Source: Deltaproteobacteria bacterium
Lineage (GTDB): Bacteria; Myxococcota; JACRCW01
Assembly: GCA_016218805.1 (NCBI GenBank)
Contig: JACRCW010000108.1
Location: forward strand, 1 to 41,667
Direction of reading: 5' to 3'
DNA: 41,667 bases
Made by a program: the position numbers and the translations under genes. Below the pieces are notes generated by a model, which searched no databases, was not told where the DNA came from, and saw only the letters and a program-made list of their open reading frames with translations. Each line of letters begins with the position of its first letter. The stretch's first letter is position 1. This document shows, piece by piece, positions 29,292-33,528 of this stretch.

Positions 29292-30347
29292 TCACGCGCG
29301 CACGGTGCCCCACGCGGTGATCTCGTTCTTGTTGTTGTCCAGTTGCCGCAGCACGAACTCGGCAGCGTGCGCGCGCAAGATGCCCTTCACGTCCTCCAGG
29401 CGGCCGTGGTCCTCGTCGCCACGGAACTTCACGGTCACGCAGAACTTCCGGCACAGCTTCTGCCGCGTCCAGTGGCGCAGCAGCGTGACGGTGCGCTCCG
29501 GGAACGCAATGAGGTCGCACACCAGCCAGTCCACGGGCACCTTGGGCTCCCAGCTGAACGCGTCACCCTCAACAAACTTCACCGCCGGGTGGCGCATCAC
29601 GTCCGCGCGCAGCGGGCTGCGGTCTACGGCGGTCACGCGCGCGCCCTGCTCCACCGCCACCCACGTCCACCCGCCGGGGCTGGCGCCCAGGTCCACCACC
29701 GTCTCGCCCTTCTGGAAGGTGGTGCCCATGTGGCGCAGCGCTTCGCGCAGCTTGAGGTGCGCGCGCGAGGGCGGCCGCTTGTCCTCCGGGATCACCACCC
29801 GCCCGCCCGGGAACCGGCTCATCACCGCGCGCAGCCGCTCGCGCGCCACCGCGTCACACACGCTCACCACCGCGCGCGTGGGCGTGGCCAGCGCCACCTG
29901 CACCAGCAGCTCGTCCTCGCGCCAGGCGCCATCCGGCGCGGCGGCGCGGCCGCGCATCGCGCCGCCCGCGGACTTCCGCAGCTCGTCCACCACCGCGTCA
30001 CGCACGCGCTCCACCCGCGCGGCGCGCACGGGAGAGCCGCGGTACTCGTGACAAAACGCATGCAGCCGCCAGGCTCCCGCGTGTTGCACCACCGCGGGCG
30101 CGATGACCGCGGACGCCGCCACCGCCAGTTCGCGCGCGGAGGCGCCCTCCACGTCCACGGCGGATGGCAGGCACTGCGCGCTGAAAGCCAGGTGCACCGG
30201 GACCTGCGCCTGCTGCGCGTCCAGCGTGCACGCCAGAAACCCCTCGGCCACCGTCTCGACGGTCACGCCGGGGAACGCGCGGCGCAGCTCCGCGGCAAGC
30301 GCCGCTTCCATGCCGGGCCGGCATGCGTGCACGCGGCGTTCGTCCAT
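29292..30347 (-). CDS. rlmM: RlmM-like (FtsJ-family) 23S rRNA 2'-O-methyltransferase
   Basis: CRPGMEAALAAEL, PSRAHLKLREA, DLGASPGGWT, AVD, DWLVCD, NKNEIT. Confidence 0.8.
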   Translation of the reverse strand: MDERRVHACRPGMEAALAAELRRAFPGVTVETVAEGFLACTLDAQQAQVPVHLAFSAQCLPSAVDVEGASARELAVAASAVIAPAVVQHAGAWRLHAFCHEYRGSPVRAARVERVRDAVVDELRKSAGGAMRGRAAAPDGAWREDELLVQVALATPTRAVVSVCDAVARERLRAVMSRFPGGRVVIPEDKRPPSRAHLKLREALRHMGTTFQKGETVVDLGASPGGWTWVAVEQGARVTAVDRSPLRADVMRHPAVKFVEGDAFSWEPKVPVDWLVCDLIAFPERTVTLLRHWTRQKLCRKFCVTVKFRGDEDHGRLEDVKGILRAHAAEFVLRQLDNNKNEITAWGTVRA

Positions 30348-30392
30348 GACGGCCCCATACCACGCGTGGGATGCTGCGCGCGGGAGGACGCC

Positions 30393-31709
30393 ATGAAGCG
30401 TCTTGTGGACGGGGTGCATGCGTGGGTCCACCGTGCGCCGTTTGGCATTGAGGTGGCCAGCGGTCTCACGCAGCGCGCGCTGACGCTCCCGCCGGACCTG
30501 CTGGGCGAAATCATCCCGCTGGCGCACGGCCTCCCCGACGACGAACCCGCCGGCGAGGCGTACCGCCGCCTGCGCGAAGCAGGCCTGGCCGACGCAGACC
30601 TTCCCGCGGTGGACCGCACCGTCGTCGAGCACCTGCGGCGTCTGGGCGCGGGTTACGCCTGGCAGCTCGCCGGGCACAAGGACGCGCCGCGGCTGGTTGA
30701 GGTGGTGCGGGCGGTGAATGCGCAGCGCAAGATCACGTTTGACCAGTTTGGCCAGACCACCGTGCTGCCGGAGACGGCGGTGTCCCGCGCGCTGGAGCTG
30801 CGGCGGCGGCTGGGGAAGAAGGCCCGCGTCCTGCTCATTGGTGACGACGACATGCAGTCCCCGCTGCTGACGGCGATGGGCCAGCGCGTGAGCGTGCTTG
30901 AGATCGACCCTGAGCTGGTGCGCTTCCTGCGGCGCACGTGCGCGGACGCGGGCGCTGACGTCGACGCGCGCTGCCTGGATGTGCGCGTGCCGTTCCCAGC
31001 GGACTGGGCCGGCGCGTTTGACGCGGTGCTGACTGACCCCATGACGTTTGAGCCGTGCCTGGTGGCGTTCCTGGCGCGCGCGGCCAATGCGCTGCGGCCC
31101 GGTGGCCTGCTGCTGTGCGCGGTGCACACGGCGGGGGGCGCGCTGTGGCGGCAGGTGCTCCCGCGTCTCCCATTCCGCGAACTCGACGTGATGGGCGCGC
31201 TGCACGCCTATCACGACGAGGGCTTCACGGAGAGCTGGTACCACTCGGACCTGCATGTACTGCGGCGCACGCGCGGCGCCGCGCCGTTTTCCCCTGACCA
31301 GGACATCCCGTTCCCCGAACTGATCCTGGGCGCACATGGCGGCCCGTGGCACGGCATCCTGTGGGCGGCCAGTTCGCCGTGGCGGCGGCCGCGGTTTGAC
31401 GTGCTGGCGGACCGGTTCCGCAGCTGGCCGGCCCTGGCGCGGCTGGAGGTGCTGGAGGAGTTGCGTGACGAGGACGACCGCTGGAGCCGGCTCACCCTGG
31501 TGACGCGCGGCGGCGGCCACGCGGTGCTGGCGTATGACACGCGGCGCGGCCTGCTGTGCGCCACGCTGTTCCCCTACACCACCGAGCGCGCCAACCTGCT
31601 GCGCAGCCACCTCGCCCCCGTGTTCACGGGCGTGTCCGAGGGCACCTACCGCTGCGAGGCGCCACCGTTGCGCGTGCCGGACTTGGCACCCAGCCGCGCC
31701 AGCAGGTGA
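30393..31709 (+). CDS. BpsA-like (N4-bis(aminopropyl)spermidine synthase family) aminopropyltransferase with C-terminal degenerate AdoMetDC-like domain
   Basis: GGAGG RBS; FDQ...PETAVSRA, VLLIGDDDMQS, VLEIDPEL, DVR.PFP, FDAVLTDP, FLARA signature; about 100-aa C-terminal extension with GGGH...LFPY. Confidence 0.8.
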   Translation: MKRLVDGVHAWVHRAPFGIEVASGLTQRALTLPPDLLGEIIPLAHGLPDDEPAGEAYRRLREAGLADADLPAVDRTVVEHLRRLGAGYAWQLAGHKDAPRLVEVVRAVNAQRKITFDQFGQTTVLPETAVSRALELRRRLGKKARVLLIGDDDMQSPLLTAMGQRVSVLEIDPELVRFLRRTCADAGADVDARCLDVRVPFPADWAGAFDAVLTDPMTFEPCLVAFLARAANALRPGGLLLCAVHTAGGALWRQVLPRLPFRELDVMGALHAYHDEGFTESWYHSDLHVLRRTRGAAPFSPDQDIPFPELILGAHGGPWHGILWAASSPWRRPRFDVLADRFRSWPALARLEVLEELRDEDDRWSRLTLVTRGGGHAVLAYDTRRGLLCATLFPYTTERANLLRSHLAPVFTGVSEGTYRCEAPPLRVPDLAPSRASR

Positions 31710-32746
31710 TGGGCCAGCGCGGCGTCCAGGCCGGCATGGAACGGGAACAGATCCCAGGAGAACCGCCCGGTCCCCAGGTTCCATGACGTGGACAGGTGCC
31801 CTCCGTCCGCAAACGCGGCAAAGAAGTGCCAATGACCCACCTCGGGGACCTCGCGCGTTGACGTCGGCACGGCGCCGCACGCGGCCAGCGCGCGCTCCAC
31901 GGCGTGCCGGGCGTCCGCGGTGCGGTCCGGGCCTGCCACCAGGATCACGTCGCTGTGGGCATGCGTGTCACCCAGCGGTGCGCCCGGCACGGCGTCATCC
32001 ACCGGCGTCTCCTCGGCGGCGCGCGCTCCCTGCCGCCGGAACAGCCAGTGATCCCACCTGTGCGCGGCGGGGATCAGCCCGGGCAGCAGCACCGCGGTGT
32101 GCTCCTGCATGCACTCGGTGATGACCAGCCCGCGCGGACCGGCAGCGGCCACCACGTGGTCCCGCAGCAGCGGATGCGCCACCAGCGAAACCCGGCCGCC
32201 GTCCCTGGCGCGCGCGGCGGCCACCACCAGCTGCCGGCCCATCCACGCCGCGGTCTGCGGCGGATCCACGAACACGACGTCACACGGGTGCTCCGTCTGT
32301 GCCGCGCCGCGCGCCAGCACCGGCCCGTCACACCCGGTCATCTCCACGCGCATGCCGCGGCGCGCCGCGACGATTCCCGGCCACCCGCGTCCACCCAGCA
32401 CACCCACGCGCGCACCACGGCGCGTTCCCTGCAGCGCCTGCCGCGCGCGCAGCACCACGGACTCCGGGACGGGCGTGGTGTTGCCGTGCGGGTCATCAAA
32501 CAGCCTGAACCCGGCCATGGCGCGCCGCACCGCCGTCACCTCCGCGGCCGCGCCGTCCCACCCGCGCAGCGCCCACGCCCACGGCTTTCCCGCCTGCGCC
32601 AGCGCGCGCAACCACGCAGGGTCCACACCGCCCAGGTCAGCGCTGGCGCCGCGCTGCTCACGCACGCCCGTCCGCCCCAACCGCCGGATCTCCATCATCC
32701 CGTCGCGTGACACCACCGCGTATTGGCTGGGCCCCAGGCGTTGCAT
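31646..32746 (-). CDS. Degenerate paralog of the BpsA-like/AdoMetDC-like fusion (lacks GDDD)
   Basis: Collinear motifs FDDPHGNTTPVPESVVLRA, ARVGVLG, CDVVFVDPP, RDGGRVSLVAH, DHWLFRR, DGGHLS...DLFPF. N-terminus MQRL parallels MKRL. Confidence 0.7.
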   Translation of the reverse strand: MQRLGPSQYAVVSRDGMMEIRRLGRTGVREQRGASADLGGVDPAWLRALAQAGKPWAWALRGWDGAAAEVTAVRRAMAGFRLFDDPHGNTTPVPESVVLRARQALQGTRRGARVGVLGGRGWPGIVAARRGMRVEMTGCDGPVLARGAAQTEHPCDVVFVDPPQTAAWMGRQLVVAAARARDGGRVSLVAHPLLRDHVVAAAGPRGLVITECMQEHTAVLLPGLIPAAHRWDHWLFRRQGARAAEETPVDDAVPGAPLGDTHAHSDVILVAGPDRTADARHAVERALAACGAVPTSTREVPEVGHWHFFAAFADGGHLSTSWNLGTGRFSWDLFPFHAGLDAALAHHLLARLGAKSGTRNGGASQR

Positions 32747-32818
32747 GGTGCGGCACCCTAGCAGCCTTTCCTGGCGGGCCGCAGGCATTGCAGGATGGCG
32801 GAAACCCGAGGTGACCGC

Positions 32819-33094
32819 ATGGACTGGAAGCTGTTCGCGACGACGTTTGGGTTGGTGTTCATGGCGGAGCTGGGTGACAAGACACAGCTTGCCACGCTGG
32901 TGCTGGCGTCTGAGGGCGAGGGGAAGTGGATGGTGTTTGCCGGGTCCGCGCTGGCGCTGGTGACCACCAGCGCGCTGGCGGTGCTGGGCGGGGAGCTGGT
33001 GTCCCGGGTGGTCCCGCCGGGGGTGTTGCCCAAGGTGGCGGGGGTGCTTTTCGTGCTGCTTGGACTCTGGATGATCCTCGCCAAAGGGGATTGA
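32819..33094 (+). CDS. UPF0016 (GDT1/TMEM165) family membrane protein, single-repeat form
   Basis: FMAELGDKTQLA motif, 3 TM helices; GAGGTG RBS. Confidence 0.92.
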   Translation: MDWKLFATTFGLVFMAELGDKTQLATLVLASEGEGKWMVFAGSALALVTTSALAVLGGELVSRVVPPGVLPKVAGVLFVLLGLWMILAKGD

Positions 33095-33105
33095 GGAGGC
33101 GGCAC

Positions 33106-33528
33106 ATGTTCCGGGAGATCGTGGTGGGCTTTGATGGTTCCGACCCGTCACGTCGGGCCTTTGAACGCGCGGTGGAGATGGCGCGTGCAGAGGGCGGGCG
33201 TGTGACGCTGGTGTACGCGTTTGACCCGGTGCCGTTCACGCCGCTGGAGGTGTACGGCGTGGCGCCGCCCACGGTGCGGTCCACGGAGATTGAGCGCGCG
33301 CACAAGATGCTGCAGCACGCGGCCGAGCGCGCGGACAACGTGAAGACGGACGTGGTGGTGGAGACCGGCTACCCGGCGGACGTCCTGGTGGAGACGGCCA
33401 AGGCGCGCAAGGCAGACCTGGTCGTCGTCGGCTCGCGCGGGATGCGGGCCATTGGGCGGTTCATGCTGGGTTCCGTGAGTGACCGGGTGGTGCACATGGC
33501 GCCGTGCGCGGTGCTGGTGGTGCACTGA
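33106..33528 (+). CDS. Universal stress protein (UspA family)
   Basis: IVVGFDGS..S.RA, G.PAD.L, ADLVVVGSRG...LGSVSDRVVHMAPCAVLVV; GAGGAGG RBS. Confidence 0.95.
   Translation: MFREIVVGFDGSDPSRRAFERAVEMARAEGGRVTLVYAFDPVPFTPLEVYGVAPPTVRSTEIERAHKMLQHAAERADNVKTDVVVETGYPADVLVETAKARKADLVVVGSRGMRAIGRFMLGSVSDRVVHMAPCAVLVVH

Follow-up and report, generated by a model that had tools for sequence, protein, structure and literature searches.

The chemistry of N4-bis(aminopropyl)spermidine synthase, BpsA (EC 2.5.1.128; PF01861; PDB 5xnc and 6j27), has been described from thermophiles. In Tk-BpsA a GDDD motif (residues 157-160) orients decarboxylated S-adenosylmethionine (dcSAM), the residues D225, E259, Y290 and Y316 surround the acceptor, and a C-terminal acidic cluster serves as aminopropyl carrier, according to the accessible part of PMC12979288. 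Two convergent genes in a 41,667-nucleotide stretch of Deltaproteobacteria DNA (contig JACRCW010000108.1 of GCA_016218805.1, here C74 of the 6.4-Mb assembly G000, which is 92% complete with a GC content of 70%; the whole stretch is hereafter the window) encode a BpsA-like protein, P0001, and a degenerate paralogue, P0002. The two belong to a new BpsA-like family of three domains, which forms a compact subfamily in uncultured Myxococcota and in which the pairing of an enzyme with a pseudo-enzyme is real and conserved. P0001 shares with BpsA the catalytic fold, the GDDD motif and apparent equivalents of D225, Y290 and Y316. Unlike BpsA, the family has another N-domain, an additional C-domain with the fold of S-adenosylmethionine decarboxylase (AdoMetDC) and a degenerate partner; P0001 is moreover without an acidic carrier tail or an equivalent of E259, and the hosts are not known as thermophiles.

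The fusion of an aminopropyltransferase to a class 1b AdoMetDC-fold domain is also found in animal spermine synthase (PDB 3c6k) and in bacterial AdoMetDC-aminopropyltransferase fusions. In the animal enzyme, the human one included, the fused AdoMetDC domain is dead and required for dimer formation, as described in the available text of PMC12803844. The AdoMetDC-fold domain of the new family is C-terminal and not N-terminal, a second, degenerate paralogue is added, and the transferase is of BpsA type and not SpeE type, indicating that the fusion is independent of that in spermine synthase. Trypanosomatids likewise retain a dead paralogue next to an active enzyme of polyamine metabolism, in their AdoMetDC/prozyme and deoxyhypusine synthase pairs (PMC5201418 and PMC3663545, in their accessible sections). 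Those pairs are eukaryotic, involve other enzymes and have proven heterodimer activation, whereas the present pair is known from sequence; P0002 is, in the manner of a prozyme, a paralogue without catalytic residues that is under selection. A dcSAM-dependent variant of microcin C aminopropylation has reportedly been found in Bacillus subtilis (a 2025 paper). In microcin C itself, a methyltransferase-fold enzyme and a decarboxylase, MccD and MccE, add an aminopropyl group to a ribosomal peptide (accessible portion of PMC12250964); unlike that system, the family loci show no mcc genes or short precursor, and their neighbours are secretion-filament-like. By separate evolution the family repeats two eukaryotic tricks, a dead AdoMetDC domain and a dead-paralogue partner, which makes it a bacterial test case for both. 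A literature search, with most subscription journals outside its reach, returned no account of the family, nor any mention of a dead BpsA paralogue or of a secretion-linked BpsA-like gene.

An intact BpsA-like protein and its degenerate paralogue

Homology of the two opposite-strand genes, which a preliminary description of the window had read from seven pairs of shared motifs, lies beyond chance in three comparisons: BLASTP aligns the proteins with an E-value of 9e-10, their Smith-Waterman score is 123 against 40 +/- 5.6 in 500 shuffles (maximum 65; 14.9 standard deviations), and an 18-member family profile aligns to P0002 with a probability of 98.7 over 318 columns. All seven motif pairs are present and fall in the same alignment columns. 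The minus-strand copy, as that description had it, is without GDDD and stays open throughout its length; about 23 residues of its Rossmann domain are deleted and about half of its N-domain is gone (47% of columns filled), yet all three domains are retained in outline. The 3′ ends of the genes overlap by 64 bp. Searched alone, P0002 has no match in Pfam, NCBIfam, PDB sequences or a set of 5.8 billion proteins, and it becomes visible only with family profiles. A third paralogue on contig C77 of the same assembly is intact, carries GDDD and has 450 aa, 40% identical to P0001.

The BpsA-type catalytic domain proposed for P0001 is supported by a match to PF01861 (BpsA_C) at 81.7 bits against a cut-off of 27 and by fold comparison, in which whole-protein searches with Foldseek and VIA tested the transferase domain alone; BpsA is the best match to the P0001 model (predicted local distance difference test, pLDDT, 88) in both, with a Foldseek E-value of 1e-15. 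D215 and Y273 of P0001 correspond to D225 and Y290 of Tk-BpsA, and Y283 aligns with the tyrosine (Y316) of five out of five canonical-type homologues. E259 sits in an insertion that the new family is without. The stretch matching the carrier tail holds one acidic residue in P0001, compared with three to four in the tails of the five canonical-type homologues; it continues into another domain, and other family members have 1-5 acidic residues there. Among intact copies R112, Q121, G150, D151, D153, D172, D215 and Y273 are present in all 37 aligned rows, D152 in 36 and Y283 in 35, whereas among 24 rows of degenerate copies Q121 is kept in 2, D152 in 3, D215 in 6, Y273 in 2 and Y283 in none; P0002 carries F, N, Q, V and H in the columns of R112, Q121, D196, Y273 and Y283. 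This distribution of active-site residues supports the earlier prediction of one intact and one catalytically dead copy. In its donor site P0001 appears to work like BpsA; its carrier tail and architecture set it apart from a true BpsA.

The C-domains are predicted to have the class 1b AdoMetDC fold, by modelling for P0001 and by alignment for P0002. Residues 315-425 of P0001 were modelled separately, on an alignment of 56 such domains that contained no SpeD (pLDDT 93); their five best Foldseek matches are AdoMetDCs (template modelling, TM, scores 0.73-0.76), followed by human spermine synthase; in VIA the Z-scores are 12.1 for both 2iii and the N-domain of 3c6k and 11.9 for 1vr7, with the next at 8.8. 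The domain profile aligns to SpeD with a probability of 92, and the genome's own SpeD is its best non-family match among 59,002 open reading frames (ORFs; E 0.007). A 25-row profile without SpeD found no AdoMetDC among PDB sequences, and earlier profile matches to PDB AdoMetDCs were discarded since that alignment had included a real SpeD. The self-cleavage site of AdoMetDC is absent, with [EQ]SH in 0 of the 56 aligned C-domains and GGH in both window proteins. The C-domain is the best-kept part of the degenerate copies (96% of columns filled), with a mean identity of 0.215 against 0.186 among intact copies, whereas mean identity in the catalytic domain falls from 0.38 (intact) to 0.22 (degenerate) and half of the N-domain is gone. 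For the N-domain, which shows two clear helices ahead of a linker helix within the P0001 model, nine look-alikes were returned, three of them named PqqD and all below the family-naming bar of the tool; Pfam PqqD is not among the 25 families listed for 71 family members. RREs, the domains to which this likeness points, bind leader peptides (available part of PMC13381572).

P0002 also looks like a coding sequence. Its GC content at third codon positions (GC3) is 0.88, compared with 0.89-0.93 in five neighbouring genes, and contigs of a relative (depth 4-5) from run X1, a groundwater metagenome that is possibly the source of the window DNA, cover 336 and 598 bases of it, the greater part of the gene, free of gaps. 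Of about 130 differences counted on the two X1 contigs, a subset of 59 in-gene ones was listed; 32 of these fall on third codon positions (one third expected; p 8e-4), and among the 59 differences 20 of 49 changed codons are silent, 29 alter the residue and none creates a stop. Selection on the P0002 frame is present but loose, given the share of codon changes that alter the residue. A search of positions 30000-33200 found no sigma-70-type promoter.

Table 1. Positions in the window of the paired genes, their domains and motifs.
Feature	Coordinates	Strand	Remarks
P0001, intact BpsA-like three-domain protein, 438 aa	30393..31709	+	PF01861 E 6e-23, above cut-off
N-domain of P0001, approximately aa 1-70, with three strands and helices; resembles a PqqD/RRE winged helix (a lead)	30393..30602	+	secondary structure; look-alikes TM 0.49-0.59
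BpsA-type transferase domain of P0001, aa 86-314	30648..31334	+	Z 23.7, root-mean-square deviation 2.8, 227 residues aligned to 5xnc_A
GDDD motif of P0001, aa 150-153	30840..30851	+	equals Tk-BpsA 157-160
C-domain of P0001, predicted AdoMetDC fold, GGH for ESH, no pyruvoyl site	31335..31667	+	
P0002, degenerate paralogue, 366 aa	31646..32746	-	GDDD lost; R112/Q121/D196/Y273/Y283 equivalents lost; C-domain kept
AdoMetDC-like C-domain of P0002	31652..31978	-	C-domain profile E 9e-10 in locus set
GGRG replacing GDDD in P0002, aa 118-121	32384..32395	-	

Recurrence of the pairing in the family

A profile search of 1.84 billion representative proteins returned 118 at E-values up to 1e-30, and among the best 150 together with the first hits there are 68 full-length members (380-480 aa), of which 65 carry GDDD. 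Within the phylum a full-length member (E <1e-60, four candidates scored per genome) occurs in 27 of 401 genomes, spread over 12 families; the two largest taxonomic families searched, with 172 and 67 genomes, contain none except a single 329-aa BpsA-like protein. The best titled matches are metagenome-assembled genomes of Myxococcota, Myxococcales, Deltaproteobacteria and Bdellovibrionales, with single records from Gemmatimonadota and Planctomycetota. The myxobacterium-like host suggested earlier agrees with these matches, the assignment resting on record titles. A scan of metagenomes (29 of 64 parts) added at least four family loci, in which the gene caller showed no degenerate copy; the degenerate-copy profile was not applied to these four.

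Pairing with a degenerate copy recurs throughout this set. Of 41 intact genes, 23 have such a copy within 7 kb. In 18 cases it sits immediately upstream in the same orientation, in one it is upstream with a GNAT gene between, and in four the two genes are convergent (the window, L064, L142 and L143); the convergent layout of the window pair is incidental, because most pairs elsewhere are tandem. Genes in these neighbourhoods were called with a composition-based script that missed some, for example the RlmM-like gene beside P0001. A 132-aa convergent ORF in L063 was rejected as a degenerate copy; it starts with the residues that end the intact ORF of L141 at a contig edge and is the tail of another intact gene, which lowered the count of linked copies from 24 to 23. 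By genome, a degenerate copy is found in at least 22 of the 27 that have the family. In two proteins (781 and 840 aa) a degenerate N-half is joined to an intact C-half; both are known from the protein alone, so that a frameshift artefact is possible. In six of seven pairs dN/dS of the degenerate copies is 0.10-0.38 (the seventh is saturated and some dS values exceed 1.5); for pairs in which both members allow a calculation, it is 1.3 to 2.8 times as high in the degenerate as in the intact copy. A two-subunit enzyme is likely because intact and degenerate copies recur together in many uncultured relatives.

A quick tree built on 66 rows places 17 tandem-type degenerate copies in one starred clade and groups P0002 with five other degenerate copies on long branches (SH-aLRT, a likelihood ratio branch support, 83; P0002 branch 1.91). 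The degenerate copy of L145 is placed among intact ones on a very long branch, from which it follows that degenerate copies may have arisen more than once. As regards the ancient inverted duplication proposed for the window, the shared ancestry stands, and a local inverted duplication is neither shown nor rejected: P0002 is 24% identical to P0001 and 28% to the C77 paralogue, and a grouping of P0002 with P0001 is not rejected by the approximately unbiased test (p-AU 0.44, LG+G4). The subunit role proposed for the degenerate copy is weakly supported by the predicted heterocomplex. P0001 with P0002 scores 0.36 (runs 0.69, 0.01 and 0.36) against 0.00 for the best of three controls; the runs share at least 0% of their contacts and do not agree, partner pLDDT is at least 59, and similarity to solved AdoMetDC-fold dimers may have contributed to the score. 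In the benchmark of this score, 116 of 157 solved pairs and 2 of 215 mismatched ones attained the mark, and the range up to 0.60 holds only 18 of the 157 solved pairs together with both mismatches.

The searches also returned BpsA-like proteins of other architecture. A separate subfamily without a degenerate copy (L078, L148, L152, L153 and L154) is always convergent with two unnamed genes, c9 and c10. Six proteins of 650-800 aa (P0103, P0105, P0111, P0114, P0119 and P0130) have an exported-looking N-domain and membrane segment fused to a BpsA-like domain, and P0096 (1081 aa) combines an N-terminal membrane segment with two BpsA-like domains, both with GDDD. Records L083 (Asgard archaeal) and L108 (Anaerolineae) contain tandem pairs of BpsA-like ORFs. 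L157:1-483 and L144:6086-7273 are identical in their first 161 residues and share neighbours in genomes of two different families, so one of the two bins probably holds a foreign contig.

Neighbouring genes and a possible link to secretion filaments

A gene for SpeD, with an intact ESH site and PF02675 matches on the two tested, lies within 7 kb of 13 of the 41 intact loci. GNAT-fold genes of two kinds occur near 18; one kind has PF13302 matches, and the other is presumably GNAT-like by its fold. A further unnamed gene kind is found near five. The remaining recurrent neighbours resemble parts of type III secretion systems: tip-like genes of the kinds c4 and c11 stand near 15 loci, SycD-like genes near 11 and SctE-like genes near 6, with any of the three near 16. 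In its fullest form (L067, L068, L070, L076, L077, L079 and L080) the locus comprises an SctE-like gene, tandem SycD genes and c4, with the GNAT gene, speD, degenerate copy and intact copy on the opposite strand. Of three TPR neighbours tested, two score above the LcrH/SycD cut-off, and SseC-like genes in the c4 run reach E 3.5e-6, under the cut-off. Feature look-alikes of c4 at 0.93-0.94 include clusters in which LcrV and EspA each occur on 12% of members, and c4 has no match among PDB sequences. The family is present in 19 of 22 genomes with c4, and near the lineage of the window c11 occupies the place of c4; the other eight family genomes all match c11. Related genomes in these counts are not independent of one another.

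In G000 the module is scattered: C74 carries the window pair, C77 a second intact copy together with speD and a tip-like gene, and C137 a GNAT gene, the latter in a gene order that in L062 includes an intact gene and c11. In the region C77:31078-35113 (L001:7076-11114) the C77 paralogue stands behind a 223-aa protein of no known family and is flanked by an intact speD and a divergent glycine-rich, tip-like c11 gene at L001:9384-10646, a gene order repeated on metagenome contig L168. The c11 motif (…KxYEMLSNxxKxMHDM…RN) ends five scattered proteins, on C77, C133, C19, C36 and C38 (L163-L166), and the C133 member, too, has a homologue of the 223-aa protein as its partner; the five are possibly a family of secreted filament proteins. 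Beside the window pair itself, an RlmM-like 23S rRNA methyltransferase gene (29292-30347, minus strand; PF01728, with NF008734 under cut-off) is divergent from P0001, the two starts lying 45 bp apart, and is no recurring neighbour of the family. On the other side, a GDT1 gene of half the usual size (91 aa) and a gene for Usp (32819-33528, plus strand) are divergent from P0002.

Two FHIPEP genes are present in four of five relatives tested; the fifth has a single one and is without flagellin, which the other four possess. A non-flagellar system is therefore likely in these relatives. In G000, C158:36000-70000 (L257 and L258) holds a full-looking flagellar cluster, with flagellin, cap, hook, motor and export genes labelled by motif. 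Non-flagellar export-like genes of the SctN-, SctU- and SctV-like kinds (C61:7842-9212, C143 at about 81400-82450, L275 and L276) occur singly and unclustered among housekeeping genes; the first two kinds in G000 are labelled FliI/SctN-like and FlhB/SctU-like by similarity. A cultured Myxococcus has a system without needle and translocon, according to the accessible text of PMC12075869.

Proposed role and alternatives

Our favoured explanation, held tentatively and at somewhat below even confidence, is that P0001 and P0002 form an enzyme/pseudo-enzyme heterodimer that uses dcSAM for an aminopropylation serving a type III secretion tip or filament. The two proteins would pair through their dead decarboxylase-fold C-domains, as that domain does in human spermine synthase, leaving the heterodimer with a single working active site supplied with dcSAM by SpeD. 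The intact subunit would transfer aminopropyl groups from dcSAM to an acceptor serving the tip or filament, and the RRE-like N-domain may grip a tip-like protein as that acceptor. The parts of this proposal differ in strength. The dcSAM chemistry of the intact subunit is quite probable from the kept BpsA active site and the neighbouring speD; a physical partnership of the degenerate copy, as scaffold or allosteric subunit, is somewhat likelier than its absence; and the link of the family to a secretion filament stands about evenly balanced. As to the acceptor, a protein is suggested by the RRE-like domain and the loss of the carrier tail, whereas the retained acceptor-site residues suggest a polyamine, and we lean slightly to an amine on the tip-like protein itself over a free polyamine. 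In Salmonella, polyamines are required for needle assembly, a role shown genetically and not mechanistically in the available text of PMC11299824; this fits either acceptor. The stronger form, in which the heterodimer covalently adds aminopropyl or polyamine chains to a tip or filament protein and the GNAT neighbour caps them or reverses their charge, is unlikely, and would, if true, represent a new protein modification of an injectisome part. The linkage of the family to speD and to tip and translocon genes makes a recently raised question testable, namely how polyamines support needle assembly, and each component is a small soluble protein amenable to assay in E. coli.

A number of observations weigh against the proposed role. 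The window pair, with RlmM-like, GDT1 and Usp genes as its neighbours, has no speD, GNAT or secretion gene in the surrounding 7 kb, and 25 of the 41 loci are without a secretion-like neighbour in the DNA covered, some ending at contig edges. The neighbour profiles were built from the same loci in which they were counted. Neither c4 nor c11 has a Pfam or NCBIfam match at cut-off, their common stretch is limited to the C-terminal 40 columns (probability 88), and the glycine-rich c11 profile matches 86 of 401 genomes, most of them without the family; SycD was rejected as a phylogenetic marker as too widespread, occurring in 226 of the 401, a tally that includes the unpublished genome G195, which bears on no claim made here. 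The G000 assembly, at 92% completeness, shows only the flagellar FlhA and no second FHIPEP gene, and its SctN- and SctU-like genes stand alone. The RRE likeness of the N-domain is under the naming bar. The degenerate copy was not found in four family genomes (G001, G002, G003 and G075), so this subunit is not obligatory; the four include the closest relative (96% complete) and both other genomes of the class, all three with two intact copies, and P0002 could partner the C77 paralogue or SpeD instead of P0001. Outside the phylum, family members occur in other contexts (L066 and L170). In L066, the Gemmatimonadota record, the member lies beside speD, a methyltransferase gene and a KamA-like radical SAM gene; in L170 it lies ahead of genes labelled by motif as AMP-binding- and radical-SAM-like.

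The foremost alternative, which we consider doubtful, is that the family, like BpsA, produces a free polyamine of branched or long-chain type, with the degenerate copy tuning activity or chain length; secretion genes would then be neighbours owing to a need of the filament for this polyamine, or through inheritance alone. The retention of GDDD, D215, Y273 and Y283, the fold match to BpsA and the 13 loci with speD all agree with it, the GNAT neighbours could be polyamine acetyltransferases, as their weak PF13302 matches would allow, and the needle requirement in Salmonella (accessible portion of PMC11299824) is consistent with it. A free product accords less well with the missing acidic carrier cluster and E259 equivalent and with an N-domain resembling peptide-binding RREs, and since the three PF01564 matches in the genome are weak (best E 3.5e-13), a supply of spermidine is not established.

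It is improbable that the degenerate copy serves not P0001 but acts alone or with another partner, for example by binding SpeD through its decarboxylase-fold domain like a prozyme, or by sensing methylthioadenosine or polyamines. The AdoMetDC-fold domain is its best-kept part, speD is often directly upstream of it, some degenerate copies are unlinked from intact ones (L144 and L145), and the trypanosomal prozyme offers a precedent (PMC5201418, in the part available). However, it retains the whole transferase fold and not the C-domain alone, fusions join degenerate to intact copies, and 19 of the 23 linked copies directly adjoin the intact gene, with speD absent from many of these cases. More improbable still is the use of S-adenosylmethionine (SAM) by P0001, as a methyltransferase or as an MccD-type 3-amino-3-carboxypropyl transferase acting on a protein or peptide. 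The fold is that of class I methyltransferases, METTL5 is second in VIA (Z 20.1 vs 23.7), and MccD/MccE provides a precedent of carboxypropyl transfer followed by decarboxylation (PMC12250964, accessible text); however, GDDD replaces the glycine-rich loop in all but three of the 68 full-length members, the fused decarboxylase domain has no pyruvoyl site, and intact speD genes are frequent neighbours. Decay of P0002 as a functionless duplicate, to which its long branch, the lack of close relatives among 5.8 billion proteins and the failure to find it in the three other genomes of the class might point, is very improbable given 366 open codons despite 24-29% identity to its closest paralogues, its GC3, the third-position bias with no stop or gap in the relative, and dN/dS well under 1 in other degenerate copies.

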